Shown in pieces: positions 2,027-58,418 of a stretch of 64,000 nt of DNA. This DNA is from Planctomycetota bacterium (GTDB taxonomy: Bacteria; Planctomycetota; SZUA-567; H5-PLA8): positions 96,001 through 160,000 of the forward strand of contig JBBRPR010000014.1 in assembly GCA_038227875.1 (NCBI GenBank). Reading direction: 5' to 3'. The first letter of the stretch is position 1, and each line of letters begins with the position of its first letter. The notes under the pieces were generated by a model. It was not told where the DNA came from, ran no database searches, and worked only from the letters and a program-made list of their open reading frames with translations. A program made the position numbers and the translations under genes.

Positions 2027-2719
2027 ATGAGTGACGAAGACAAGCCCAATCCCAAACCCAAGGGGCCGCGCGAATATGTGGTCAACACGGAGCGCGAAAA
2101 AGCGACGCGCAAGCCGCGCACGCGCTTCCTATTCAAATTTATCGCGCTGATTCTGGTGCTGCTGATGGGCGCGTGGGGTTGGTATTCTTACAAGAGCGGC
2201 AAGCCCATCGACCTCAGCGACGCCAAGCAGCGTGACGAGACCCTCGACGCAGCGCGCAAGGACGCGGAACTGGCTGCAGCGAAAACCAAAGAGGTTGGCA
2301 CCGAAGCCATTGCGTGGGCGCAACGGAGCCTCGGCGACCTGGCGAAGATCATCAAAGGCAAGCCGCCGGAGACGAAAGAGGAAATCAAAGTGCTCGTCGA
2401 TGAGTCGAAACAAGCCGTGGAGACTGCCAAGCCGGCCACTGCAACCCCGGTGGCTCCGCCTGTCGTGAGCCCCATCGCCGACGCGCAGGCCGAGTACCGC
2501 ATTGGGCAGGAATATTATGCGAAGACCGACCCAATGGCTTCTCAGAAGCAAGTTCAGTCGAATCTGCATCTGGCCGAGCCGCACTTTTCAAAGTGTCTGG
2601 ATCTGCTTGAAGCCGCACGCACGCGAAAAGTAAACGGAGCGGAGATCGATCGGCTGGAACAAGCGGCGGCGCGACGGCTGTACGACTGCCGAAAACGTAT
2701 GGAGTTGCAGCGGAATTAA
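2027..2719 (+). CDS. Single-pass membrane-anchored hypothetical protein
   Basis: ATG 2027 (MSDEDK) inside ORF 1958-2719; one hydrophobic segment FLFKFIALILVLLMGAWGWY followed by a helical domain. Confidence 0.75.
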   Translation: MSDEDKPNPKPKGPREYVVNTEREKATRKPRTRFLFKFIALILVLLMGAWGWYSYKSGKPIDLSDAKQRDETLDAARKDAELAAAKTKEVGTEAIAWAQRSLGDLAKIIKGKPPETKEEIKVLVDESKQAVETAKPATATPVAPPVVSPIADAQAEYRIGQEYYAKTDPMASQKQVQSNLHLAEPHFSKCLDLLEAARTRKVNGAEIDRLEQAAARRLYDCRKRMELQRN

Positions 2720-2859
2720 CGTCCGAGGCCTCCGAAAATCGGACGGCGCGCCCACCGAAATTCAATCAGTGTCTCGTCTTATAGAGGCATGTCGTTCGCC
2801 TTTCCTTCGCAATTTTAGGAACGCAAATTGCTCAAAGTGGTTCGGTTTTTGGAGCCATC

Positions 2860-3306
2860 ATGGATTCGACCGTTCGCGGCAATGTTCTGGTTGTAGAAGA
2901 CGATCAGGACTGCGGCCATATGATTGTCAGGATTCTCAGCAATGCTGGGTATGGAGTACGATGGGCGCCGACGCGCGAAGCGGCGGTCGCGGCATTGGGT
3001 CGTTATCTTTACGATTACATCATTCTTGATCTGCGCATGCCGGGAATGCCGACGGAAGTGTTTTTGAAAATCGTCGGGGCCTCGTCGCGCGAGATCAACA
3101 TCGTTCTGACCACCGCCGAAACCGACGCTGCTCGCGAAGCCAAGCGGCTGGGGATTGCAAACTTTCTGGGCAAACCATTCATGCCCGAAGATCTGCTGGC
3201 TGTCCTGCGCAAGCTTTCGTCAGGCGTGCGGAAAATTCCCGAAGGATTTCGGCCTCCGCCACCACCAACAACGCCGTCACCCACACCCACGCCCAAATCG
3301 AACTAA
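2860..3306 (+). CDS. Single-domain response regulator (receiver)
   Basis: VLVVEDD, IILDLRMPG phospho-Asp, LGKPF; GGAG RBS upstream; Pro/Thr-rich tail. Confidence 0.9.
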   Translation: MDSTVRGNVLVVEDDQDCGHMIVRILSNAGYGVRWAPTREAAVAALGRYLYDYIILDLRMPGMPTEVFLKIVGASSREINIVLTTAETDAAREAKRLGIANFLGKPFMPEDLLAVLRKLSSGVRKIPEGFRPPPPPTTPSPTPTPKSN

Positions 3307-11432: not shown

Positions 11433-12731
11433 ATGCCCTCACGAACTCTTGCCTGGATTGCCCTGGTCGTTCTGCTCCTCACGTTGGGACTGCGTCTGCA
11501 CGCGCTGTTCTCGGGGTCGCACGTCGATGAACTGACGCGCGAGCAGGCCACGTACCGGTTGGTGCGCGAAACGATCCGCGAACGCTACGTCAACAACGTC
11601 GACGACAAGGTGGAGAAGAAATTATTTTACGGTGCGCTGGAAGGCATGGCTTCGCAGTTGGACCAGCACACGCAGTTCATTCCGCCCGATGAGTACGAAG
11701 CTTCCGATGCGCGCATCACCGGCGAAATCGAAGGCGTCGGCATGGAAATCGATCAGGACAGCAAGGGTCTGTTCGTCGTCACGCCGTGGATGGGCACGCC
11801 GGCGTACGAGCGCGGAGTCCTGCCCGGCGACCGCCTGCTGATGATCGACGGCGTGGCCACGCAGGGCATGGATAGCGACGAGGCGCGCAAGCGCATCACT
11901 GGCAAGGCCGGCACGGAAGTGAAGCTGACCTTGCTGCATGAAGGCGACGAGAAGCCCGTGGAGCTGGTGCTGCTGCGCGCGGCGATCATCGCGCAGTCCA
12001 TTCAGGCGGCGGAAATTCTGTCGACCGAATGGGTGCCGGATCCGGCGACGAAAATCGGTTTTGTACAGATCGCGCAGTTTCAAAAACACACAGCGATCGA
12101 TCTGGATGCGGCGCTGAAAAAGCTGGAAGGGCAGGGGATGCAGGCGTTGATTCTCGATCTGCGCCAGAATCGCGGCGGGATGCTCGACGCGGCAACCGGA
12201 GTCGCGGAACTGTTTCTGAAGGACGGCCCGATCGTCAGCGTGTTTGAAAAGGGCGAAGGCGGGCGCATTAATGAAGAGGCGCACAAGTCCAGCGGCACCA
12301 AAACGCATCCCGAATGCCCGCTCGTAATCCTGACCGATTCACTGAGCGCATCGGCGTCAGAGATTGTGTCCGGTGCGCTGCGCGAACGTGGGCGCGCGAC
12401 GCTGGTGGGCGGACGGACGTACGGAAAGTTTTCGGTGCAGACGATCATCCGCATCCCCATGGGCGGCAACGAGGGTCTGGCCGCGTTGAAGCTGACCACC
12501 GCGCGCTATAAAACGCCGACGGGCAAATGCATCGACGGGCAGGGCATCGTTCCGGATGTGCTGGTGCCATCGACGGCCGAGCAGCAGAAAGCCCTGCTGA
12601 TCTACCGCAATCAGCGCCATCTGCAGGACAACAATCCTCGTCACACGGCGCCGAAGCCCGGTGCGTTTGTAGATACGCAATTGAAGAAGGCCGTCGAAGT
12701 AATTCTGACCAAAGTCAAGAAGCCGGAATAG
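11433..12731 (+). CDS. ctpA: S41A carboxy-terminal processing protease with PDZ domain
   Basis: N-terminal TM; GVGMEI PDZ; LILDLRQNRGG; SASASEI catalytic Ser; GRTYGK catalytic Lys. Confidence 0.93.
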   Translation: MPSRTLAWIALVVLLLTLGLRLHALFSGSHVDELTREQATYRLVRETIRERYVNNVDDKVEKKLFYGALEGMASQLDQHTQFIPPDEYEASDARITGEIEGVGMEIDQDSKGLFVVTPWMGTPAYERGVLPGDRLLMIDGVATQGMDSDEARKRITGKAGTEVKLTLLHEGDEKPVELVLLRAAIIAQSIQAAEILSTEWVPDPATKIGFVQIAQFQKHTAIDLDAALKKLEGQGMQALILDLRQNRGGMLDAATGVAELFLKDGPIVSVFEKGEGGRINEEAHKSSGTKTHPECPLVILTDSLSASASEIVSGALRERGRATLVGGRTYGKFSVQTIIRIPMGGNEGLAALKLTTARYKTPTGKCIDGQGIVPDVLVPSTAEQQKALLIYRNQRHLQDNNPRHTAPKPGAFVDTQLKKAVEVILTKVKKPE

Positions 12732-14016
12732 CGCGCCGCGCGGCGTCGATCACCGTTTGAATTGATACGCCCTTCTCCAACGCGCTGGCACGGCAATCCT
12801 CGTATTCCGGATGGAATGATGTATCGCGCCCCTGCCACGATCCGATTTTCACACGCACGGCGCCGAACGGCGTCTCCACCGTGATCATGCGCCGCGACAG
12901 TTTCATCCGCGACAGCGTCTGGCAGCGGATCCCGAATGTTGGACACTCTTTGAAAATGAGGTCCGCCAGCGCATCGAGCTGTGCGGGTTCGGCGAGAACC
13001 GTCAGCATCGACCCGGGGCGGAATTTTTTCATCTGAATCGGTGTCAGGAAGACATCCAGCGCGCCGCGCGCGAGCAATGTCTCGCAAAGGAAACCGAGGA
13101 CTTCCGGCGTGGCGTCGTCGATGTTCGCGGAGATTTCGACGATGCTGTCGGTCGATTCCGAATCGCGAGCGGTTGTCGGTTCCGAGAGCGTGCCCAAGGC
13201 CACGCGCAGAATGTTCGGAAACGGTTGGTTCTCGCGCGTGCCGGCGCCGTAACCCAGATTCGTAATCGTCATCGCCGGTAGCGGACCGAAGTGTTTCACC
13301 AGCGCCGCCGCGAGCGCCGCACCTGTCGGCGTAGTGAGTTCTTTCTGAAACGTCGTCTCGCGGATCGGCAGACCTTTCATCAGCTCCAGTGTTGCGGGCG
13401 CGGGAACAGGCATCTGCCCATGAGCGCATTTGACGAAGCCGCCCGAACCCAGCGCGATGGGGCCGGACCAGACTTCGTCGATCCCCAGTGCTTCCAGACC
13501 GATGCAGACGCCGACCATATCGACGATGCTGTCGATCGCGCCGACTTCGTGAAAGCCGACGTCTTCCGGCGGCATGTTGTGCATGCGGCCCTCGGCGATC
13601 GCGAGTTTGTAAAACGCGGCGATGCTGTTGGCCTTTACCGCGGGGCTCAGCGTTGAATTTTCGATCAGCTTCTTGATGTCCGCGTAGGTGCGGTGCGCAT
13701 GCGAGCCGGACGCGCTTTCGCCGTGATGCGCATGACCGTGATCGGCATCGCCGTGCGAATGGCCGTGATCGTGTGCAGGTCCATGTTCATGCGCGCCAGT
13801 TTCCTGAGGCGCGCCGTCGATTGTCACATCAAATTTTGTAGCGGCAATCGCTCCTCGGAGCACACGCTTGGAACCGAGGTGATAGCCGGCGACGTTGAGT
13901 TTCGAGAGCTCAAAATGGAGCCGGGCCAGATCGAGTCCCAGATCCAACAGTGCCGCGACAAACATGTCTCCGGCAATGCCGCTGAATGGATCGAGGTAGA
14001 GTATTGTCTTGCTCAC
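12715..14016 (-). CDS. larC: Nickel-pincer cofactor nickel insertase LarC
   Basis: GTG 14016: LYLDPFSGIAGDM, His-rich insert, FHEVGAIDSIVD, ELTTPTGAA, QMKKFRPG, PEYEDC. Confidence 0.93.
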   Translation of the reverse strand: MSKTILYLDPFSGIAGDMFVAALLDLGLDLARLHFELSKLNVAGYHLGSKRVLRGAIAATKFDVTIDGAPQETGAHEHGPAHDHGHSHGDADHGHAHHGESASGSHAHRTYADIKKLIENSTLSPAVKANSIAAFYKLAIAEGRMHNMPPEDVGFHEVGAIDSIVDMVGVCIGLEALGIDEVWSGPIALGSGGFVKCAHGQMPVPAPATLELMKGLPIRETTFQKELTTPTGAALAAALVKHFGPLPAMTITNLGYGAGTRENQPFPNILRVALGTLSEPTTARDSESTDSIVEISANIDDATPEVLGFLCETLLARGALDVFLTPIQMKKFRPGSMLTVLAEPAQLDALADLIFKECPTFGIRCQTLSRMKLSRRMITVETPFGAVRVKIGSWQGRDTSFHPEYEDCRASALEKGVSIQTVIDAARRAIPAS

Positions 14017-14065
14017 GCCGTACCGTCCCGTTCCCGCTCCAGTTCCGCGTCGAACTTGGAGAAAA

Positions 14066-15661
14066 TCAGATTGAGAAGTCGTCGAAGCCCATAATTTCCC
14101 GCACCTTGTCGCCAATATTCGGGGCGCGCATGAACGTTTCGCCGATGAGCACGGCATCAATGCCGGCTTCCGCCAAGCGCAGCGTGTCGGCGCGATTGCT
14201 GATTCCCGACTCGCTGACCAGAAGGATTCCGTTGCGGCTGGAGCGCGGCAGCTTTTCGGCAAGGCGGAACGTGGTCTCCAGATCCGTCTGCAGCGTTTTC
14301 AAATTACGGTTGTTGATGCCGACGATGTTCGCGCCGCTGTTCAGCGCGATTTCCAGCTCCGCTTCGTCGTGTACTTCCACCAGCGCATCGAGGCCTTCGC
14401 CTTCGGCGGCTTCGCGGAAATCGCGCAACTGGGCCAGGTCCAGGCAGGCGACAATCAGCAGCACGGCATCAGCACCAAAGCGCTCGGCTTCAACGATCTG
14501 GTACTCGTCGATGATGAAGTCCTTGCGCAGGATCGGCAGCTTGGTGGCTTCACGCGCGAGGTTCAGGTGGTCGAGCGACCCCTTGAAATACTTGGTGTTG
14601 GTCAGCACCGACAAAGCCGATGCATTGGCGCCTTCATAAATTTGCGCGATTGCCGCTGGATCAAAATCCGCGCGCAACAGTCCGCCGGACGGGCTGGCCT
14701 TCTTGATTTCTGCAATGAGTGAGAGTCCCGGCGACGCCAGCGCCTTGCGGAACGACCGGGGCGCGGTGCGTTTGGACTGATTTGCGCGCAGTGCGGAGAG
14801 CGGCGCGGCGCTCTTGACCAGCGCGACTTCCTCGCGCTTGTTCTCCACAATTTCCTGCAGGACGTCGGATGCTGAATTCAATGGCCGGCCTGCGCCGCCG
14901 CCCTGTCCACCCACTCCCATGCGCGAGCTCTCCTTGCGACGAATGTCCGCCTCGAGTTCCAGGATGCGTTCGAGCATCGGATCGGGCAAATTGGTCTGTT
15001 CGAGATTGAGCGCCGGAACGCGTTGACCGCCCGAGGCGACGACGCGTCCGGGAATTCCCACCACCGTTGAACCCGGCGGCACGGCGTGTAGCACAACCGA
15101 TCCGGCGCCGATGCGCGAATTCTGGCCGACGACAATGTTACCCAGCACTTTCGAACCCGCGCCCAGCGACACGCCGTCTTGAATCGTAGGATGGCGCTTG
15201 CCGGTTTCCTTTCCCGTTCCGCCCAGCGTGACCTGGTGGAGCATCGAAACATTGTTGCCGAGGATCGCCGTTTCGCCGATCACGACGCCGTGAGCGTGGT
15301 CGATGAAAATGCCGCGACCAAATTTCGCGCCTGGATGAATGTCAGCCCCGGTAAGGAAACGCGCGTAGAAATTCACCAATCGCGCCGGCGTGCGCAGTCC
15401 CCAACTATATAAGGGGTGCGCGGCGAGGCGATGAAGTGTCAGCGCCCACCAGCCCGGGTAGCAGGCGCAGGCGATCCAGCCTTCCGCGGCCGGGTCGCGA
15501 TAGCGGATGGCTTTCAGATCCGAAATAATATCAACGAGCGTGGAGGGCCGTGTCAGCAGTACCAGCAGACTGGTCAGTACGAAGAAGGCGACGAACGCCA
15601 AAAAGAGTGCGCAGAAAACCCACCCCACGTAGGCTGCGACAATTTCCATGTAGTGCAACAT
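14066..15661 (-). CDS. cysE-trpC: Fusion of N-terminal TM helix, serine O-acetyltransferase and indole-3-glycerol-phosphate synthase
   Basis: One open frame: RDPAA..TGADIHPGAKFGRGIFIDHAHGVVIGET..VTLGGTGKETGKRHP (CysE), Gly-rich linker, then IAEIKKASPS, LSVLT, LRKDFIID, LVEVH, GINNRNL, VSESGI (TrpC). Start is 15661 or 15649. Confidence 0.9.
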   Translation of the reverse strand: MLHYMEIVAAYVGWVFCALFLAFVAFFVLTSLLVLLTRPSTLVDIISDLKAIRYRDPAAEGWIACACYPGWWALTLHRLAAHPLYSWGLRTPARLVNFYARFLTGADIHPGAKFGRGIFIDHAHGVVIGETAILGNNVSMLHQVTLGGTGKETGKRHPTIQDGVSLGAGSKVLGNIVVGQNSRIGAGSVVLHAVPPGSTVVGIPGRVVASGGQRVPALNLEQTNLPDPMLERILELEADIRRKESSRMGVGGQGGGAGRPLNSASDVLQEIVENKREEVALVKSAAPLSALRANQSKRTAPRSFRKALASPGLSLIAEIKKASPSGGLLRADFDPAAIAQIYEGANASALSVLTNTKYFKGSLDHLNLAREATKLPILRKDFIIDEYQIVEAERFGADAVLLIVACLDLAQLRDFREAAEGEGLDALVEVHDEAELEIALNSGANIVGINNRNLKTLQTDLETTFRLAEKLPRSSRNGILLVSESGISNRADTLRLAEAGIDAVLIGETFMRAPNIGDKVREIMGFDDFSI

Positions 15662-15846
15662 AGTCTGACTGACATGTTCATAAGAAGCGCGAAAAAATCC
15701 AACGCATAATGAGGATGGCCGTTCGGGAGACTCAGGCGGGCGATTGGCTCTTGGGCGTGTGAGAACCCGCGCGTCTTGACAAAGTGTATTGGGCCCCATA
15801 TATTGAAGTCGTAGTTCATCTTTCACCGCGCAGAGGTTCAACGTTG

Positions 15847-28967: not shown

Positions 28968-30395
28968 CTAAGCTCCGCGCATCACTTCAACCTGCTTCAG
29001 CGCAAACGTCAGATCCTCTACCAGCGCCGTCGCGTCGGGATGGCGGCGCGCCGGATCTTTCGCCAGGCAGGTGTCGACAATGGAGGCTGTCGCGCTGGAG
29101 ACGTCCGGCCGGAATTTTCCCACGGGCGGGTGCGGCCTGTTGATGGTCTCGACGAAAATGTCGAATGGCGAGTCCGCCACGAACGGCAGCCGTCCGCAGA
29201 GCAGCAAATAGAGCGTCGCGCCGAAGCCGAAGATGTCCGCCGGTTTTCCGGCGCGGCGAGCGTCATGGATCTGCTCCGGCGCCATGAACCCGATCGTCCC
29301 CAGCGTCATGTTGCTCCCAGTCAAGCCTTCGCCGCCCTGCATTTCGTGCTTGGCCACGCCCAGGTCCGTGAGCTTCGCGCCGGAATAGCTCAGATCCAGA
29401 TGATCGGGCGTGTAGGGCACGAGGATGTTCTCGGGCTTGATGTCGCGATGGACGATGCCGCTTTCGTGCGCCTTGGCCAGTCCTTTCGCCGCCGACAGGC
29501 ACAACCGCAGCGCGTTCAGTTCGCTCAGGCCGATCTGGCCGTTTTGAATTTCCTGGATCAGGCAGGTGGTCGCGGACATGCCGTCGATGTACTCCATCAC
29601 CAGGTAGAGCAGCGAACCTTCCTGATCGATGTCGTAGACCTGGACGAGATGCGGCGAGTGAATCTGCGAGGCAATCTGCGCTTCGCGGTAAAAGCGCTCG
29701 GCCATGTTCATGTCGTCGCGGAAGAGCGCAGTGGAGACGACTTTCACCGCGACCTGGATTTTCGTGCGCGGATTATACCCGCGGTAGACCACGCCCATGC
29801 CGCCCTGGCCGATGCGCTGCAGCAGGATCACCTTGCCCAGCGTCGGCAGGGGGCGCCCGCGCTGCAGCACGCGCGCGGAGCCAATCAGCAGCGGATCGAA
29901 GGAGATCTCCGGCGTCTTGGGCATCAATTCCAGCGGCACATCCTGGTGTTCAAAGACCGGCGGGTCGTTCTTGGATACCGCGGCGACCAGCGTCGGACGT
30001 TCCGACGTTTGCGGCCGGGGCCGGAACGAGAGAATGCGTTCGGCCGCGTCGATGCGGCTTTTCAGTTCATCCAAAGCCACAGGTTTGCTTAAGAAAACGT
30101 CGGCCCCGGCGTCGATGCCGAGGATCAGATCCTGCGTTTCCTTCTTGCTGGTGAGCAGAATAATGTACACGTACTGCGACTTGGCGCTTTCGCGGATTTT
30201 GCGGCAGACATCCGGTCCATCCAGCCCCGGCATCATCCAATCCAGGATCACCAGCGCCGGTGGATCGTCGGACTGCAGAATCTTCAGCGCTTCCAGGCCG
30301 TCGCCGACGCTCGCCACGTCGTGCCCGCGCCGCGTCAGCGCGGTTTTCAGTACCAGCTGCGAGGTGGGATCGTCGTCGGCGACCAGGATTCTCAT
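28968..30395 (-). CDS. Response-regulator receiver fused to a Hanks-type Ser/Thr protein kinase
   Basis: REC: LVADDD, ILDWMMPG, SKP. Kinase: GQGGMGVVY, VAVK, HRDIKPEN, TDLG, MAPEQ. Confidence 0.92.
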   Translation of the reverse strand: MRILVADDDPTSQLVLKTALTRRGHDVASVGDGLEALKILQSDDPPALVILDWMMPGLDGPDVCRKIRESAKSQYVYIILLTSKKETQDLILGIDAGADVFLSKPVALDELKSRIDAAERILSFRPRPQTSERPTLVAAVSKNDPPVFEHQDVPLELMPKTPEISFDPLLIGSARVLQRGRPLPTLGKVILLQRIGQGGMGVVYRGYNPRTKIQVAVKVVSTALFRDDMNMAERFYREAQIASQIHSPHLVQVYDIDQEGSLLYLVMEYIDGMSATTCLIQEIQNGQIGLSELNALRLCLSAAKGLAKAHESGIVHRDIKPENILVPYTPDHLDLSYSGAKLTDLGVAKHEMQGGEGLTGSNMTLGTIGFMAPEQIHDARRAGKPADIFGFGATLYLLLCGRLPFVADSPFDIFVETINRPHPPVGKFRPDVSSATASIVDTCLAKDPARRHPDATALVEDLTFALKQVEVMRGA

Positions 30396-33300
30396 GCGGC
30401 GGGATCCTGCGCCAGCTTCAGCAACTCGGTGCGCAGCGCGGCGAGTTCCGTCTCCAGCTCCGCCGTGAGCGTTGCCGCCTGCTTCACATCGTTGTCGCGG
30501 CAGGCCGTCTCAAGGTGATAGGCCATCTGCCGCAGCCGCTCGCCGCCGACATTGCCCGACGCGCCTTTGATTGAATGCGCACAACGCTCGGCCGTCGACG
30601 TGTTGCCCGCGATCAGTGCGTCCTTCATGTTGGCGATGCGCTTGGGGACGTCGTCGAGGAAGACCTTGATCACCTCTTTCAGCAGCGCCCCGTCGCCGCC
30701 GACAATGCGCATGGCCGCGTCCAGATCGAAGACCGGCGCCGGAGTCTCCTGGGTTGTTTCGGCGGCAACAGTGGGTGTCGAGGACTTGGAATGCCGGCGG
30801 GGCAGGGCAGGGCGCCCCGCGGAGCGCGCAAGAATGTCGGCCAGCTGGGCCAGGCGCACCGGCTTGGCCAGGTAGTCGTCCATGCCGGCTTCCAGGCAGC
30901 GTTCGCGGTCGCCTTTCATCGCGTTGGCCGTCATCGCGACGATCGGTATCGGCGGCCGGCCCGAACTCTTCTCCAGTCGGCGGATTTCACGCGTCGCCGT
31001 GTAGCCATCCATCACCGGCATCTGGCAATCCATCAACACCACGTCAAAGGCTTCCGTGCGCACCGCATCCAGCGCTTCGCAGCCGTCGACGGAAATCGAG
31101 CAGGCACAGTTCAGTCGCTTGAGCATGCCCACCGCGACGGCGCGGTTGACGTCATTGTCTTCGACCAGCAGCACGCGCAGATTCAGCGCAGGGACATCGT
31201 TTTCGTCGCTCACGGCATCCTGTTCTCCCGACGAGTGGTGCGCGCCGCCTTCAAACGCGACGCGCCAGGCCGATTGCAGCGCGTCGAAGAGTTCCGACTG
31301 CCGCACGGGCTTGTGGAGCATCTCGACAATGCCGCTGGCGCGCAGCTGCTGCGGCGTGAAGGTTTCGCCCACGGACGAGAGCATCACCAGCACGGTCTTG
31401 GCGATCTTTGGATCGGCCTTGATCTTCTGCGCCAGCGTCTCGCCGTTCATGTTCGGCATCTGGTAATCCAGCAGCGCCACGGCGTATTCTTCGCCGGCCT
31501 CCGCCGCGCGGCGCAGTTCCTCCAGCGCCGCCTGGCCATGTTCGACCGCCTTTACCGGCACCTGCCAGACGGAAAGCTGTTCCTGCACCACCATGCGGTT
31601 GACGGCATTGTCGTCGACCACCAGGCAGCGCGCACGCAGGGCGTACTGGGTCATCGTGGTGACGGAGAGTTCCTCCTTCTTCTCGCTTTCAGGCAGCGGC
31701 ACTTCCAGGGTAAAGACGGTGCCCTTGCCGATGACGCTGGACACCGACAGCGTCCCGCCCATCATTTCCACGAGATTCTTCGAGATCGCCAGGCCCAGTC
31801 CGGTGCCGCCAAACTGCCGCGTCGTCGACGAGTCGGCCTGCGAGAATTTCTGGAACAGGCGCGAGCGGTATTCGTCGCTGATCCCGATGCCCGTGTCTTC
31901 CACAGTCATGTGCATCACCGCGCGTCCATTGACCCGCTCGTGGCAGGCGACGGAAATCAGCACGTGCCCTTCCTGCGTGAACTTCACCGCGTTGCTGGCC
32001 AGGTTCGAAAGAATCTGCCGCATGCGCACCGGATCGCCGATGAACGTCTTTGGCGCGCCGGGCGCGTAACGCACAATCAGCTCCAGCTTCTTCTCCGACG
32101 CGCGTGCGGCGATCAGCATCCCGCTCTCTTCCACGATCGTCTGCAGGTTGAAGTGGATGGCCTCAAGCGTCAATTTGCCCGCATCGATTTTCGAGAGGTC
32201 GAGGATGTCGTTGAGGATCGTCAGCAGCGATTCGGCCGAGTTGCGAATGGTGACGGCGTATTCGCGCTCGCGGCCCGTGAGCCGGGTGCTGATCAGCAAT
32301 TCGGACATGCCGATCACGCCATTGAGCGGCGTGCGGATTTCGTGGCTCATGTTGGCCAGGAATTCCGATTTAAGCCGCGCCGACTCCATTGCCATGTCGC
32401 GGGCCGACGAGAGCGTGCGTTCGGCGCGCTTGCGGTCGGTGATGTCGGTGAAGGCGACCACCGCGCCAATCACCACGCCCTCGCGGCGCACCGGACAGGA
32501 GCGGTATTCCACGGGAAAACTGGACTTGTCCGCGCGCCAGAACACCTCATCGTTCACGACCACTTCCTCGCCGCGTGTGAACGCCTGATAAATCTTGCAT
32601 TCTTCCACCGGAAACGGCCGACCGTCTTCGTACTGGTAATGAATGAGCTCGTGCATGTTCTTGCCATGAAGCTGTTCGACGGTCAGGTAGCCCAGCGTTT
32701 TGGCGCAGGCGGGATTGGCGAAGGTGCATTTTCCATCCATGTCGATGCCGTAGATGCCTTCGCTGACCGAATTGAGCAGCAGGCGCAGGCGTTCTTCGCT
32801 GAAGCGGTAGTCGGCTTCGGCCTTGCGCCGCGCCTTGCTGTCGCGCTTGAGAGCCACCATGGCGACGATCAGCACGATCATGGATACGCCCGTGGCGACC
32901 GTGATCATGATCACCGCAACGTACGCCGTGTGCTCTTCGCTTTCCGTTCGCGCTTTGAGCAGGTCCTGTTCCTCCAGCTTTGCCGCTTGAAGTTGATCGA
33001 GGACGCTTCCCAGCAGCTGGCTGGAGGGTGCGTTGACCGTGCCGGCGAGCGTGGAATGGACGGAATCCAGGAATCGCGCCACGTGTTTTTCGAGCACATT
33101 CACGTTGGCTTGCTGGTGCTCGTTGTCGCTGGTCATCGAGCGCAGCTTGGAAATGGAATCGTTGACTTTCGTTTTCGCCTGCTCAATTTCGTCGCCGAAT
33201 TTCTTGTCGTACGACAGCTTGTAACCGCGCTCGCTGCTTTCGATGCCCTTGGTCAGAAAACGGACCCGCTCGATCTCCGCGATGACCTCATAAGTATGCG

Positions 33301-33454
33301 CGACCCGCTTGCCCGATTCGATCAGCGTCGTCGCGCTGGAATAGCGGAACACGCCGACGATACCCAGGATAATCAGCGCCAGGATGAAAGCGATATTGGC
33401 TTTGGTTTCAGTGCTGAAAGACACAGAGAGGTCTCGCGTTAATATAGGGGACAT
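30392..33454 (-). CDS. Hybrid sensor histidine kinase (TM-CHASE3-TM-PAS-HisKA-HATPase-REC-REC-HPt)
   Basis: VAHTYEV/RGY CHASE3; PAS; ANMSHEIRTP; NAVKFT, DTGIG, GGTGLGL; LDYQMP and MDCQMP receivers; AHSIKGAS HPt. Confidence 0.95.
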   Translation of the reverse strand: MSPILTRDLSVSFSTETKANIAFILALIILGIVGVFRYSSATTLIESGKRVAHTYEVIAEIERVRFLTKGIESSERGYKLSYDKKFGDEIEQAKTKVNDSISKLRSMTSDNEHQQANVNVLEKHVARFLDSVHSTLAGTVNAPSSQLLGSVLDQLQAAKLEEQDLLKARTESEEHTAYVAVIMITVATGVSMIVLIVAMVALKRDSKARRKAEADYRFSEERLRLLLNSVSEGIYGIDMDGKCTFANPACAKTLGYLTVEQLHGKNMHELIHYQYEDGRPFPVEECKIYQAFTRGEEVVVNDEVFWRADKSSFPVEYRSCPVRREGVVIGAVVAFTDITDRKRAERTLSSARDMAMESARLKSEFLANMSHEIRTPLNGVIGMSELLISTRLTGREREYAVTIRNSAESLLTILNDILDLSKIDAGKLTLEAIHFNLQTIVEESGMLIAARASEKKLELIVRYAPGAPKTFIGDPVRMRQILSNLASNAVKFTQEGHVLISVACHERVNGRAVMHMTVEDTGIGISDEYRSRLFQKFSQADSSTTRQFGGTGLGLAISKNLVEMMGGTLSVSSVIGKGTVFTLEVPLPESEKKEELSVTTMTQYALRARCLVVDDNAVNRMVVQEQLSVWQVPVKAVEHGQAALEELRRAAEAGEEYAVALLDYQMPNMNGETLAQKIKADPKIAKTVLVMLSSVGETFTPQQLRASGIVEMLHKPVRQSELFDALQSAWRVAFEGGAHHSSGEQDAVSDENDVPALNLRVLLVEDNDVNRAVAVGMLKRLNCACSISVDGCEALDAVRTEAFDVVLMDCQMPVMDGYTATREIRRLEKSSGRPPIPIVAMTANAMKGDRERCLEAGMDDYLAKPVRLAQLADILARSAGRPALPRRHSKSSTPTVAAETTQETPAPVFDLDAAMRIVGGDGALLKEVIKVFLDDVPKRIANMKDALIAGNTSTAERCAHSIKGASGNVGGERLRQMAYHLETACRDNDVKQAATLTAELETELAALRTELLKLAQDPAA

Positions 33455-54677: not shown

Positions 54678-57600
54678 ATGCCGAGCGCCGAAGTATGCCA
54701 GACCCTCACGCCGCGGGAGGAACTCGTGATCGCCACACCCGGTCCCGATACCAGTGACGATGCCACCCTGCTGCGCCGGTACGCCACCGCGGGAGATTCC
54801 GCCGCGGCCGAAGAACTCCTCCGCCGCCACCTCGATTTCCTCTACCGTACCGCTCTGCGCTGGCACGGCCGCGCGCCGGATGCCGACGACGCCGTGCAGA
54901 CGGCGTTGCTGAATGTGCTGCAGCAGGCGCGCCAATTTCGCGGGCAGGGCTCTGTGCGTTCGTGGCTGCTGACCGTTCTTCTGAACGTGCTCCGGCGTCA
55001 GGCCCGGGATACGCAATCGCAGCGCGCTCGGGAGGAGCAGATGGCCGCCACGCGTGAGAGTACGACGGCGCTGAAGGATGACTCCGAACTCGCCCAGGCC
55101 GCCGTGCTCAGCGTCAACGGACTGCCGCAGCATTACCGATTACCGCTGAGCCTCCACTTCCTCGAACAGATGTCGATGCGCGAAGTCGCCGCGGCGCTCG
55201 ACATCCCCGAGAAGACCGTGCGCAGCCAGATCGACCGCGGCCTGGAGCTCGTCCGTCAGTCGCTTGCAGCCACGGGTTATGCCGTCGCGTTGCCCGCGCT
55301 TCCAGCTGTGTTCGCCGCCGCCCATTTGGCGCCGGCGCCGCTGGCGCTCTCGGCAACGGTCCACGCGCTCGTACTGAACGCGACTGCCAAAGGTGCTGCG
55401 ACCGCCGGCGCGCTGGCCGGTTCAAAGAGCGCCGGGGCGGGCGTGTTCGCGCTCAAGGCTGGCATTCCGACGCTGCTGGCGATCGGCGCACTCACTGCTG
55501 CGCTGCATTTCTCCAACGCCGTGATGCCGACGTTGCCTGTTACGAAGGGCGACGCGCCAGCGCCGGTCGTCGCCGCTCCAACCGTTACGACCAGTGCGGA
55601 TGTGCCCGCCGATCTCGCGGGAAAGCTGGCGATGAAGGTCGATGTCAACTTCTACCGCGACTATCCGATCGAAGTGCTGCAATACCTGCGGAGTCAGACG
55701 GGCCTGCCTTACGCCATGGCGGATGCCGCGCAGCAAGCGGGGACGCTCCACCTGAAGCAAACCAGCATCAGCGTGCGCGATGTACTCGACAAAATGGCGG
55801 CAGCGTGCGGATTGGAAGTAGAGGTTGCTCACGGCCGCGTGCTGCTCTGGAAAAAGGCTGACGAAGACATACTGAAACTTTTCCATGGGCGTTTGAAAGA
55901 TTCCGACCGCTGGGTTCGCGCCAGGACGGCTTGGGAACTCTCGTCGCTCGGCGACAAACGGGTTCCTGGATTGTTGCTGCAAGCCTGCGCAGATAAGGAT
56001 GTCGGAGTGACGCTATGGGCGGCGCGCGGCTTGAATAAATTTCTAAACGTATTGCCTTATGTTGACGGCGACCGGGCGCCCGCGGTGGCGGCGGCGAAGC
56101 GCCTGTGCACGTTGAAATCGTGGGATCTCCGTTTTGAATTGCTGGGCGCGTTGAGCACGCCGGAAGCAACGGCGGCGCTGATTGGGTACAGCGAAAGCCT
56201 GGATCCGTCAGTACGCAGTAGAGGCATCAGCGGGCTGGCCAGAGACCGCCAACCTCAGGCACTGGAGTATCTGCTGGGGAAAACAGTGCTCGTTGCGGAC
56301 GTTGAGCCCTCGGACTCCGTGTTGCCGTGGGAAGCGTTGGAGGCAGTGCTGGCCGATGCGCTGGGCCAGTCGGAAGATCCGCGGGCGATCGACGCGTTAT
56401 TGACCTTTACACGGAAACCTCGCGCCAGGGAAGTTGACCAGAACCGGGTGGGACACGCGGTCGCGGCACTGGCGCGATTCAATACTCCGCAGGCCTGCGC
56501 GCGAGTGGCGGAGTTGCTCAAGAATCCGGAAATATTCACCTGCATGTTTCCCAGCAAGCATTTGCAGTCCATGGATCCAGCAGTGTTGAACGTGTGTTTT
56601 ACCTACCTTCATGACCCCGATGAAAACAAGGCGCGCATCGCACGTTGGACGCTGGGCGCCGCGCGCGACCCGCGTGCACTGGATGCGATGGTTACGGAGG
56701 CCAATGATCGTTCGAACATCAACGCGAGATGGGTTGATGAGATTGCTGCGTCTCGCGATCCCCGCGGCGAGGAATTGGTCGTCAAGCACTATGAGGAGAG
56801 TAAGAGCAATCCGGACGAAGCGAACTACCAGGGAAGTCCCGGCTTGCTCCTGCTGGCGACGCGCAATCCCAAAAAAATTGATCGATTGATCGCCGACATG
56901 AAGGATGAACGCAAAGACCTGCCGGCTCGTCTGGCGGCGGCGTCCACGCTTACGTTTGCCACTCAGCGTACCCCGGAGCAGGAGTCTGATATTCTCGCCT
57001 GGATCGGCAGCGCAGATCGAAAATTCAGGTGCGCAATGGTTCTGCATGGCCATGGGCTGTGGAGCAACGACGCGCGTTGGACTGCCTTACTGGAGGAACT
57101 GAAACAAGATTCGGACCCGAAAGTGCGCGACGCGGTGGCCGGTGATATGCATCGCCGTGAAGATCCTGCGGCGATGAAAGCGACCATTGAAACGTTGCGC
57201 AACGGCGACGCGGAATCTCGACGCCAGATTCTCGACGTAAATGCGCAGGAGGGCGAGCTTGTGCGCAGCGGCGAGCCGCTGATCGCAGACGCCATGGCTC
57301 AGTTGCTGACGAATGAGGATCGCGATACGCAGGCAGCAGCGGCCTGCGCGCTGGGCGTGATCCACGATGCGCGAGCGCCTGTGCCGCTGCTGGCGCAGCT
57401 GGCTTTGACGCCTGCACCGGATCAAGGATTCGCCCGCATTACGTATGACGGACAATGTACGCCGCGCGCGGCCCTGTTGATTTTGGCCACCAACGGCAAC
57501 GCTGACGCCGCACGCGCGCTTCATAAACTCGTACGCGTTCCGGAACTCGATTCGGACTTTTTAGACAACATGGTCAAATCCCACGAGCCTGTCCTGGTAA

Positions 57601-58418
57601 AAACAGTTGCCGACGTAGCGCTCGATGCCACCGTACCATCGCTGCTTCGGTTGACTGCAGTAATGGCGGTCTACTCTTACGGCACAGATGCCGCAACGAG
57701 GTCCATGATGGCCCAGTTGATGCGCGATCAGCTGAGCGATCCGGAGACGGACCCCAAGGCGCGCGTTTCCATCCTGAGCGTGCTCGTGCGCACCGGCGAA
57801 GCAAAGGATCTCGACCTCGTCTTCGAACAGATGCGTCAGATAACTGTTGAGAGAAGCAGCGACGTCGGAGATCTGGCGTATGCCCGTCCCAAAGATGTTA
57901 ATGGATTCGTGCAACACTTGGTGAAATTCATTGGCGACAGCACCATCAATCTAAATTTACGTTCAGAGGCTGCCGGAGCGCTGCTGAAATTCCGCGATCG
58001 CCATGAAGCGGAAATGGAGAAATTTACGCCCGGACCCGCCGAGTTGCTGATTCAGCTCTCGTCGGTCGGAGCAGTCTCTGACATGACGCGCCAGCGCCGA
58101 TGGAATGCGCTGATGGAAACCAAGGACCCCGTCGCACTGGAATTTGTGCGTCGCACGTTGAAGTCGGGTGAATTTCATGATCGGATGATAATTGCCGGCT
58201 GGCTGGCGTTATCAAAAGGCGACCACGAATCTGTCAGCGTGCTGATCGAACTTTTGAAGGATAGCGATGCAAAGAACGCCTCGGTGGCAGCCGCCTCGGT
58301 TGAAAATTGTGCCAAGCAGACCGTCGTCTCGGATGCCGATCAAAAACGCCTGACCGAAGCACTTGCCGCGTATAGGAAGACACTGCCCAATCCATTCGAG
58401 CAAAAGGAAGGGTTTTAA
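54678..58418 (+). CDS. ECF sigma-70 factor with a ~1000-aa C-terminal extension (TM, STN-like segment, HEAT repeats)
   Basis: Sigma2 DADDAVQ..SVRSWL; sigma4 LPQHYR..EVAAALDIPEKTVRSQIDRG; Ala-rich linker and TM; many HEAT motifs (DPKVRDAVA, AAAACALG). Confidence 0.88.
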   Translation: MPSAEVCQTLTPREELVIATPGPDTSDDATLLRRYATAGDSAAAEELLRRHLDFLYRTALRWHGRAPDADDAVQTALLNVLQQARQFRGQGSVRSWLLTVLLNVLRRQARDTQSQRAREEQMAATRESTTALKDDSELAQAAVLSVNGLPQHYRLPLSLHFLEQMSMREVAAALDIPEKTVRSQIDRGLELVRQSLAATGYAVALPALPAVFAAAHLAPAPLALSATVHALVLNATAKGAATAGALAGSKSAGAGVFALKAGIPTLLAIGALTAALHFSNAVMPTLPVTKGDAPAPVVAAPTVTTSADVPADLAGKLAMKVDVNFYRDYPIEVLQYLRSQTGLPYAMADAAQQAGTLHLKQTSISVRDVLDKMAAACGLEVEVAHGRVLLWKKADEDILKLFHGRLKDSDRWVRARTAWELSSLGDKRVPGLLLQACADKDVGVTLWAARGLNKFLNVLPYVDGDRAPAVAAAKRLCTLKSWDLRFELLGALSTPEATAALIGYSESLDPSVRSRGISGLARDRQPQALEYLLGKTVLVADVEPSDSVLPWEALEAVLADALGQSEDPRAIDALLTFTRKPRAREVDQNRVGHAVAALARFNTPQACARVAELLKNPEIFTCMFPSKHLQSMDPAVLNVCFTYLHDPDENKARIARWTLGAARDPRALDAMVTEANDRSNINARWVDEIAASRDPRGEELVVKHYEESKSNPDEANYQGSPGLLLLATRNPKKIDRLIADMKDERKDLPARLAAASTLTFATQRTPEQESDILAWIGSADRKFRCAMVLHGHGLWSNDARWTALLEELKQDSDPKVRDAVAGDMHRREDPAAMKATIETLRNGDAESRRQILDVNAQEGELVRSGEPLIADAMAQLLTNEDRDTQAAAACALGVIHDARAPVPLLAQLALTPAPDQGFARITYDGQCTPRAALLILATNGNADAARALHKLVRVPELDSDFLDNMVKSHEPVLVKTVADVALDATVPSLLRLTAVMAVYSYGTDAATRSMMAQLMRDQLSDPETDPKARVSILSVLVRTGEAKDLDLVFEQMRQITVERSSDVGDLAYARPKDVNGFVQHLVKFIGDSTINLNLRSEAAGALLKFRDRHEAEMEKFTPGPAELLIQLSSVGAVSDMTRQRRWNALMETKDPVALEFVRRTLKSGEFHDRMIIAGWLALSKGDHESVSVLIELLKDSDAKNASVAAASVENCAKQTVVSDADQKRLTEALAAYRKTLPNPFEQKEGF

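Follow-up and report, generated by a model that had tools for sequence, protein, structure and literature searches.

The classical cysteine synthase complex of Salmonella, Escherichia coli and Haemophilus influenzae, with its plant equivalent SAT-OASTL, pairs a serine acetyltransferase (SAT, the product of cysE) that has a flexible tail ending in an obligatory Ile with a type-A CysK that carries the TSGNT and Gln residues of the binding site. In Mycobacterium tuberculosis the partners are CysK1 and a short CysE isoform (MtbCysE), a free soluble protein with DFSI on its own C-terminus (PDB 2Q3C). CysK is also bound by mimics of the CysE tail (the CdiA-CT toxin, ending GYGI, and CymR), and extracts of PMC4212615 describe plant OASTL as binding the STAS domain of the sulfate transporter SULTR1;2 and lowering uptake. 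TrpC, the indole-3-glycerol-phosphate synthase (IGPS), is known from fusions with other Trp enzymes, namely TrpC-TrpF of E. coli (1pii), TrpD-TrpC-TrpF and TrpC-TrpB. Here we describe a gene that joins cysE to trpC in a single frame and whose product ends in a DFSI tail; it lies at 14066-15661 on the minus strand of a 64,000-nucleotide stretch (hereafter the window) from a Planctomycetota bacterium (GenBank assembly GCA_038227875.1, contig JBBRPR010000014.1, positions 96,001 to 160,000).

Like the classical complex, this organism has a SAT polypeptide with a flexible Ile-ending tail, and a type-A CysK with the TSGNT and Gln binding residues is present in the genome to which the window belongs (G000). 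Unlike in that complex, the tail lies ~280 residues past the SAT domain, behind a full TrpC barrel, the SAT is a short isoform with a transmembrane anchor, and the binding of CysK is a prediction. Since the tail is carried by the TrpC end and the SAT domain ends near residue 250, the fusion is not a strict member of the cysteine synthase complex. The short CysE isoform and the DFSI end are shared with M. tuberculosis, although MtbCysE is neither fused nor anchored. As in the known TrpC fusions the IGPS barrel is retained as an intact module, but its partner comes from another pathway and precedes TrpC in the chain, no enzyme of the Trp pathway is fused to it or encoded next to it, and TrpCF and TrpDCF proteins are only distant matches. 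The described moonlighting partners of CysK are likewise non-CysE proteins that offer an Ile-COOH tail or another surface, comparable to the TrpC end of the fusion and the tails of CysA and CysH reported below; unlike them, the proteins considered here are biosynthetic and transport proteins of one pathway in one bacterium. The explanation that we favor, and to which as a whole we assign a probability of about 0.6, is that one membrane-anchored polypeptide supplies both enzymes of the cell and would dock CysK through the tail on its TrpC end.

Architecture of the fusion gene

The initial annotation described one uninterrupted frame containing a hydrophobic N-terminus, a SAT, a Gly-rich linker and an IGPS, and this is borne out by Pfam, NCBIfam and structure prediction. 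The frame runs from an ATG at 15661 to the TGA at 14066-14068 on the minus strand, with 531 codons and zero internal stops, and has the following parts.

14066..15661, minus strand: whole coding sequence of the fusion, 531 aa plus the TGA at 14066-14068; both domains identified by Pfam and NCBIfam
15551..15658, minus strand: N-terminal transmembrane helix, probable signal anchor, residues 2-37; AlphaFold2 (AF2) model and hydropathy
14912..15544, minus strand: short-isoform CysE domain and its C-terminal helix, residues 40-250; TIGR01172 and PDB SAT matches
14876..14911, minus strand: disordered Gly-rich linker, residues 251-262; predicted local distance difference test score (pLDDT) <50, variable in homologs
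14090..14875, minus strand: complete TrpC barrel, residues 263-524; PF00218, NF001377 and PDB 3tsm
14069..14089, minus strand: C-terminal tail GFDDFSI, residues 525-531, coil and conserved; candidate CysK-docking motif [DE]-[YF]-[SAV]-Ile-COOH

Pfam places Hexapep at residues 157-191 of the fusion protein and IGPS (PF00218) at residues 268-522 with 287.7 bits and an E value of 8.6e-86; the latter match spans profile positions 1-253 of 254, in agreement with the earlier description of the IGPS domain as complete. Among the NCBIfam models, cysE (TIGR01172) scores 211.3 bits on residues 46-206 against a cut-off of 210.65 (214.6 bits in the genome search), and TrpC (NF001377) scores 321.6 bits on residues 266-524 against a cut-off of 260. 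The PDB relatives of the CysE domain are SATs (e.g. 4n69, 1t3d and 1ssq, E ~1e-45 to 1e-47), and its nearest free homologs carry the name serine O-acetyltransferase at 51-58% identity; it is a short isoform, without the full SATase_N domain. The TrpC domain matches PDB 3tsm with an E value of 1e-63. As the initial annotation stated, no second trp or cys gene is present among the 51 long open reading frames (ORFs) of the window.

An AF2 model built from 93 fused homologs, with a mean pLDDT of 90.2 and a predicted template modelling score (pTM) of 0.58, shows the helical cap and beta-helix of a SAT. Short strands stacked as a ladder over residues 105-205, mostly with pLDDT >90, support a left-handed beta-helix fold of the CysE domain together with the PDB SAT matches. 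A low-confidence loop (residues 204-226) and a helix (residues 228-250) follow, and lead into the linker, a coil at residues 251-262 with pLDDT <50 that coincides with the Gly-rich stretch and differs in length and composition among homologs (alignment columns 268-330). Residues 265-524 show the alternating strands and helices of a beta/alpha barrel with pLDDT >90.

The columns expected to be catalytic are invariant across the 93 aligned fusions. In the CysE domain these are D121, H122, R156 and H157, together with the IHPGA segment (H109-A112) and the GGTGK segment (G147, G148, T149, G150), and in the TrpC domain E318, K320, K380, E429, N450, R452, E484 and S485. The catalytic and substrate-binding roles are those of the corresponding residues in E. 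coli CysE and, for TrpC, in Sulfolobus solfataricus IGPS.

Integrity and copy number

A search of 5.8 billion protein clusters, of which the best 120 matches were examined, finds a SAT-type CysE Pfam domain and IGPS together in 102 of these 120 clusters, query included, at 44-91% identity. The 102 two-domain clusters stem from JGI, ENA, NCBI and Logan assemblies. Those with a named organism are all from Planctomycetota, and their product names are only 'TrpC' or 'serine O-acetyltransferase'. The initial annotation named a stop codon after CysE in relatives as a sign of two separate genes; none of the 93 aligned fusions has a stop at the CysE/TrpC junction. Support from reads over the junction is weak. 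A 22,330-base contig of sequencing run X1 spans 13950-15750 with zero differences, but X1 is possibly the source of the window itself and its support is thus not independent, and no contig of the independent runs X2-X4 bridges the junction, these contigs being short (the longest nearby covers 14698-14886). An artefact, in which an error of assembly or sequencing joined two neighbouring genes or the TrpC half is translated separately from an internal start such as the TTG at 14881, could draw on this dependence of the full-length read support on X1, but given that the uninterrupted architecture recurs in clusters from four sources and in 15 other genomes of the family, its probability is negligible.

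The window genome comprises 9.3 Mb and is 88% complete. IGPS is matched once in it and cysE once above cut-off, each time by the fusion gene; as the only IGPS and the only cysE of this genome, the fusion must supply both housekeeping activities. Both trpF and trpA are on contigs other than that of the fusion, and no trpB is found near the fusion gene among the window ORFs. The TrpC half probably serves the Trp pathway of the organism, being its sole IGPS with trpF and trpA present elsewhere in the genome. Taken together, the domain composition, conservation and copy number make us highly confident that the fusion is real and bifunctional, and the earlier proposal of a genuine single-polypeptide fusion can be retained.

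The assignment of the first domain as a serine acetyltransferase has one competitor, an EpsC-like or other hexapeptide acyltransferase that acts on another acceptor at the membrane, with cysteine made by another route. We regard this as very improbable. The fusion holds the sole CysE-like gene above cut-off in a genome that also has cysK, cysA and cysH, its top PDB relatives are genuine SATs, the free homologs nearest to it bear the matching name, and a SAT-type CysK tail suits a CysE role. These points outweigh the small margin of TIGR01172, which exceeds its cut-off by only 0.65 bit, the EpsC model NF041874, which also passes on the acetyltransferase domain (190.8 against a cut-off of 150), a membrane anchor that is unusual for CysE, and a second PALP enzyme on contig C23 that reaches 289.9 bits on the cysK model.

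Distribution and ancestry

Two samples were compared, one of 401 Planctomycetota genomes and one of 61 genomes from a single Planctomycetota class. In the 401-genome sample a single-frame two-domain match is found only in f1, the family of the window genome (8/8, plus G000), and in family f3 (2/2); in the other families CysE and TrpC are matched separately, often on different contigs. In the 61-genome sample the CysE match lies inside a frame of ~490-610 aa in f1 (15 of 16 other genomes, the sole exception being a broken copy in G411), f104, f3 (4/4) and f106. In families f2 and f107 it lies in frames of 310-406 aa, taken as unfused from their length. The fusion is reported in five families of one class, the fifth of which, f105, is known from the unpublished genome G409 only and is not relied on.

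A library of 1.84 billion was searched through its representatives at 50% identity; of the best 150 of these, only three are CysE+IGPS fusions (P0054, P0074 and P0089), and the other long matches proved to be tandem SATs, double IGPS or TrpDCF/TrpCF proteins. A ranking of related loci was dominated by TrpC-only matches, and L009 is the only full-length fusion among the 80 loci kept. The concern raised at the outset, that the architecture might be common in databases, is therefore correct inside one Planctomycetota class, where the fusion is common, and incorrect globally, where it is rare. In the representative library, P0121 (944 aa) has three SATase_N matches and repeated SAT cores, i.e. tandem SAT modules.

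No paper on a CysE-TrpC fusion was found among the open-access papers searched, and the words fusion, fused, indole and transmembrane are absent from a 2025 survey of CysE diversity (PMC13040420). The fusion is already in databases, but labelled with only one of its two names, and this one-name annotation makes genomes with the fusion seem to miss one of the two genes.

The placement of all fused sequences in one clade is not rejected in either domain tree (p-AU 0.693 for CysE and 0.525 for TrpC), and the trees are compatible with a single fusion event. The initial annotation proposed that the fusion coordinates two serine-consuming pathways, a proposal that is not sustained: serine is used by TrpB and not by TrpC, trpF and trpA are elsewhere, and nothing was found that ties the two chemistries together. 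Other forms of coupling between Cys and Trp synthesis have been considered along with serine balancing, such as the feeding of O-acetylserine to a TrpB-type enzyme near indole-glycerol phosphate, and some TrpB2 enzymes reportedly use activated serine. The fusion has also been kept across five families of the class with both domains intact, and so has long been tolerated. Nonetheless TrpC consumes no serine, no trpB is nearby, cysE and trpC are on different contigs in outgroup genomes, and no channel or shared site is marked in the sequence, the domains being joined by a disordered linker (with the pTM of the model at 0.58); we think a functional coupling highly unlikely. We take the CysE-TrpC link to be historical, arising in one fusion event and kept since, and not chemical.

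Two related loci show other gene arrangements. P0073 (721 aa), a metagenome cluster of the fusion lineage here called clade B, has the C-terminal half of cysteinyl-tRNA synthetase (tRNA-synt_1e positions 199-300 plus DALR_2) in frame with CysE and TrpC; it is either a cysS-cysE-trpC triple fusion or a read-through call, and hints at an ancestral cysS-cysE neighbourhood. In the unfused f2 relative G426, cysK (1170-2111) neighbours cysE (2569-3063) on contig C220 (L174:1170-3063).

The membrane anchor

Residues 2-37 form a single helix in the AF2 model, with pLDDT ~96. A hydrophobic 19-mer near the N-terminus, with a Kyte-Doolittle mean of 2.2-3.3, is present in 54 of 54 sequences of clade A, the clade to which the fusion of the window belongs, and the mean number of Lys plus Arg within 10 residues of the helix in this clade is 0.28 on its N side and 1.80 on its C side. 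The helix is probably a signal anchor that leaves the N-terminus outside and places the enzymes in the cytoplasm. Anchors are also found in some sister lineages (P0074; P0092, P0096 and P0099; the f104 and f106 genomes) and are absent from most of clade B, and the anchor trait has a minimum of 3 changes on the tree.

A conserved C-terminal tail

The C-terminal DFSI tail was overlooked in the initial annotation. Residues 525-531 are predicted as coil beyond the last helix of the barrel (pLDDT ~43), and a [YFW]-x-Ile end is shared by 53 of the 59 clade A clusters (61-91% identity), 49 of the 59 having the strict form [DE][YFW][SAVM]I. The [YFW]-x-Ile end is nearly absent from the controls, with 0/42 among clade B fusions, 1/142 among TrpC-type representatives, 1/120 among the nearest free short CysE proteins and 0/5 among the closest free planctomycete CysE proteins. 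Within clade A, 49 rows of the 54-row alignment bear the tail; in these, position -1 is Ile throughout (49/49), position -2 is Ser (22), Ala (18) or Val (7), position -3 is Tyr (30), Phe (18) or Trp (1), and position -4 is acidic in 45/49 (Asp 39, Glu 6). The spacer between the last helix and the terminal motif is 7, 8, 10, 11, 14 or 19 residues long, and a constant end behind a spacer of changing length is the hallmark of short linear motifs.

When the N-terminal, linker and tail columns are left out of the tree, clade A comes out as monophyletic (SH-aLRT 99), with the five tail-less rows scattered as singletons. The tail trait has a minimum of 6 changes, interpreted here as a single gain in the ancestor of clade A followed by five scattered losses, and the tail is present in 14/16 intact f1 genes. 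An older origin was considered and set aside: an insertion of TrpC between the CysE core and an old tail is less likely, given that the five closest free planctomycete CysE proteins, 119/120 of the nearest free CysE proteins and the fused sister lineages are all tail-less. The simplest history for such a distribution is that fusion came first and that the motif was gained later on the new C-terminus.

In its last four residues, DFSI, the fusion matches the MtbCysE peptide of PDB 2Q3C exactly. Extracts of PMC9547175 identify DFSI as the native C-terminal tetrapeptide of MtbCysE and 2Q3C as the MtbCysK1-DFSI complex. Of the energy of binding, ~80% comes from the C-terminal Ile carboxylate. Since a [YFW]-x-Ile end occurs in only one of the 120 nearest free CysE proteins, the DFSI of the fusion is probably convergent with that of MtbCysE. 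Five clade A clusters end in DYVI, the plant SAT peptide; in extracts of PMC3388911, DYVI inhibits OAS-TL with an IC50 of 8 uM and LmCS, the Leishmania enzyme, with a Ki of 4 uM.

CysK as a candidate partner

A bona fide cysK is located on contig C65 of the window genome, scoring 464.7 bits on TIGR01139 against a cut-off of 350.95. Its product matches CysK structures of the E. coli/Salmonella type with 449 bits, that of H. influenzae (1y7l) with 430 bits and MtbCysK1 (2q3b/2q3c) with 401 bits, but CysM with only 220-224 bits. Across 29 orthologs there is no variation at T75, S76, T79, Q149 and F150, which belong to the TSGNT loop and QQF, and the first four of these residues match T71, S72, T75 and Q145, the peptide-binding residues of PaCysK (PMC12895370). 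An ortholog at 81-87% identity is present in 14 of the 16 other f1 genomes. From the identity, conservation and specificity of the motif and the presence of CysK, we predict that docking to CysK is the function of the tail.

CysA and CysH share the tail motif

The motif [DE][YFW][SAVM]I was defined on the fusion family first, and all six frames of the window genome were then scanned with it. Of the 13,014 frames that close with a stop and reach 200 aa or more, an Ile end is seen in 326, a [YFW]xI end in 33 and the strict motif in only 3: the fusion, CysA and CysH. CysA, the ATPase of the sulfate ATP-binding cassette importer, is encoded on the plus strand at C15:86261-87349 (L193:762-1850) and ends in ...FSEDYSI; its best match is CysA, and it scores 406.4 bits on TIGR00968 against a cut-off of 342.75. 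CysH, the adenylyl sulfate/phosphoadenylyl sulfate (APS/PAPS) reductase, is encoded on the minus strand of the same contig at C15:103893-104639 (L193:18394-19140) and ends in ...QDFSI, with 219.4 bits on NF002537 against a cut-off of 154. Looser motifs ([YFW]xI, GxGI) proved unspecific, adding 32 further frames, 8 of them with a Pfam domain and none related to sulfur.

Both tails recur in relatives. The CysH orthologs of all 10 f1 genomes (61-72% identity) have a DF[S/N/A]I end, ~15 residues past the ECGLH motif, an extension that CysH of the window genome also carries, and none of 22 complete CysH proteins from other Planctomycetota families ends in Ile. In G091 and G154 the CysA ortholog has the end EDYAI, and in three f2 genomes the end is SDYVI or SYVI. 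Among the nearest 120 CysA clusters, 98 end in Ile, 96 in [YFW]xI and 45 in [DE][YFW][SAVM]I; the [YFW]xI clusters include ones named Omnitrophica, NC10, Binataceae, Pirellulales, Hydrogenedentales and Planctomycetes, and a link between CysA and CysK may be widespread. No paper on the binding of CysK by CysA or CysH tails was found among the open-access papers searched.

A second, divergent CysH type in members of the family (31-35% identity; L235, L236 and L240 of G221, G283 and G419) ends in ...DGSGI or ...KGAGI, G-x-G-Ile ends that we presume to be akin to the end of E. coli CysE. They also resemble the end of the Leishmania SAT, given as GSGI in extracts of PMC3388911.

With the strict motif found among the other long frames of the genome only on CysA and CysH, both of sulfur assimilation, the tail of the fusion is hard to explain without a partner in the sulfur pathway, and CysK, as the known receptor for such tails, is proposed as that partner. 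The chief competing view is that the tail is real but serves something other than CysK, either as a signal for a PDZ-type or tail-specific protease or an adaptor, or as an intramolecular plug for TrpC or CysE. Aromatic-x-hydrophobic C-termini are typical PDZ domain ligands too, and an S41/PDZ protease gene is located at 11433-12731, two genes from the fusion; the existence of tail-less members also fits. That gene, however, is not beside the fusion in L009, the one relative examined with a long flank, and S41/PDZ proteases work on the outer side of the membrane, not in the cytoplasm where the tail is predicted to lie. Moreover, DFSI is the very peptide crystallised in a CysK, and the monomer model shows the tail as disordered and not folded back onto a domain. 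We consider a role apart from CysK unlikely.

Several observations nevertheless weigh against the docking of CysK by an anchored SAT, besides the narrow TIGR01172 margin and the passing EpsC model noted above. The tail could address another partner that recognises hydrophobic C-termini, and the predicted topology is the one given by the positive-inside rule. Some lineages can do without the tail, which is absent from the intact family members G419 and G407 and from 6 of the 59 clade A clusters, and the fusions of four other families (f3, f104, f105 and f106) have no tail. Co-variation of tail and CysK was sought and is not clean: the tail-less G419 keeps an 81%-identical CysK, and for the tail-less G407 only a 60% CysK paralog is shown, in a genome that is 83% complete.

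Neighbouring genes

Immediately downstream of the fusion, and in the same direction, is larC, as the initial annotation reported.

14017..14065, minus strand: 49-nt spacer from the fusion gene to larC, read from the sequence
12715..14016, minus strand: larC, nickel-insertion protein, with a GTG start at 14016; Ni_insertion, PF01969, E 1.1e-138

In 9 of 15 other genomes of the family larC is directly downstream of the fusion, and it is not in the f3, f104 and f106 loci. A functional link between larC and the fusion was considered; LarA-like genes (4 matches) and LarE are on other contigs, and a mechanism for the pairing was not found.

Two further loci in the window have unusual architectures. 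At 54678-58415 on the plus strand, a 1,246-aa ORF contains N-terminal regions 2 and 4 of an extracytoplasmic function (ECF)-type sigma-70 factor followed by HEAT repeats, and is very long for a sigma factor. At 28971-33454 on the minus strand, a gene for a 475-aa receiver-domain Ser/Thr protein kinase is directly downstream of one for a 1,020-aa CHASE3-PAS hybrid histidine kinase, which has two receiver domains and an Hpt domain, thus placing two signalling chemistries in one apparent operon.

Proposed organization and implications

In the organization that we favor, one polypeptide would be both the serine acetyltransferase and the indole-3-glycerol-phosphate synthase of the cell, held at the cytoplasmic face of the membrane by its N-terminal helix. 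Its CysE part, a short isoform, would trimerise as a left-handed beta-helix, and flexible linkers would hold monomeric TrpC barrels, three per CysE trimer. The earlier picture of a CysE trimer that multimerises TrpC at the membrane is a reasonable structural reading of the anchor and the AF2 model, with the trimer itself a predicted element; the trimerisation, the topology and the binding of CysK are the conjectural parts of the explanation. The tail would enter the CysK active site to give a membrane-tethered cysteine synthase complex, which would respond to O-acetylserine and sulfide as the classical one does. The fusion to TrpC would have buried CysE's own C-terminus, and a docking motif would have arisen on the new C-terminus, the TrpC end, in the ancestor of clade A, with CysH acquiring the same motif in the same family. 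If docking is correct, the fusion would be a clean natural case of a short linear motif that tracks the terminus of a polypeptide and not the domain that it serves.

More tentatively, and with rather more doubt than confidence, CysK may be the docking hub of sulfate assimilation in this lineage, with CysA, CysH and the membrane-anchored CysE-TrpC sharing the end [DE][YF]x-Ile-COOH. In that event dimeric CysK could bind, bridge or inhibit all three at the membrane, and release them as O-acetylserine rises. CysK would then work as a post-translational switch that senses O-acetylserine and sulfide and governs uptake, reduction and the supply of the carbon skeleton together, a bacterial equivalent of the SULTR1;2-OASTL and SAT-OASTL controls of plants.

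The locus thus presents textbook enzymes in a non-textbook arrangement, an anchored CysE whose docking peptide has apparently been re-created on the end of an unrelated enzyme. The sharing of this motif with CysA and CysH leads to a testable hypothesis, that a single docking code may place sulfate uptake, sulfate reduction and the supply of O-acetylserine under the control of CysK.

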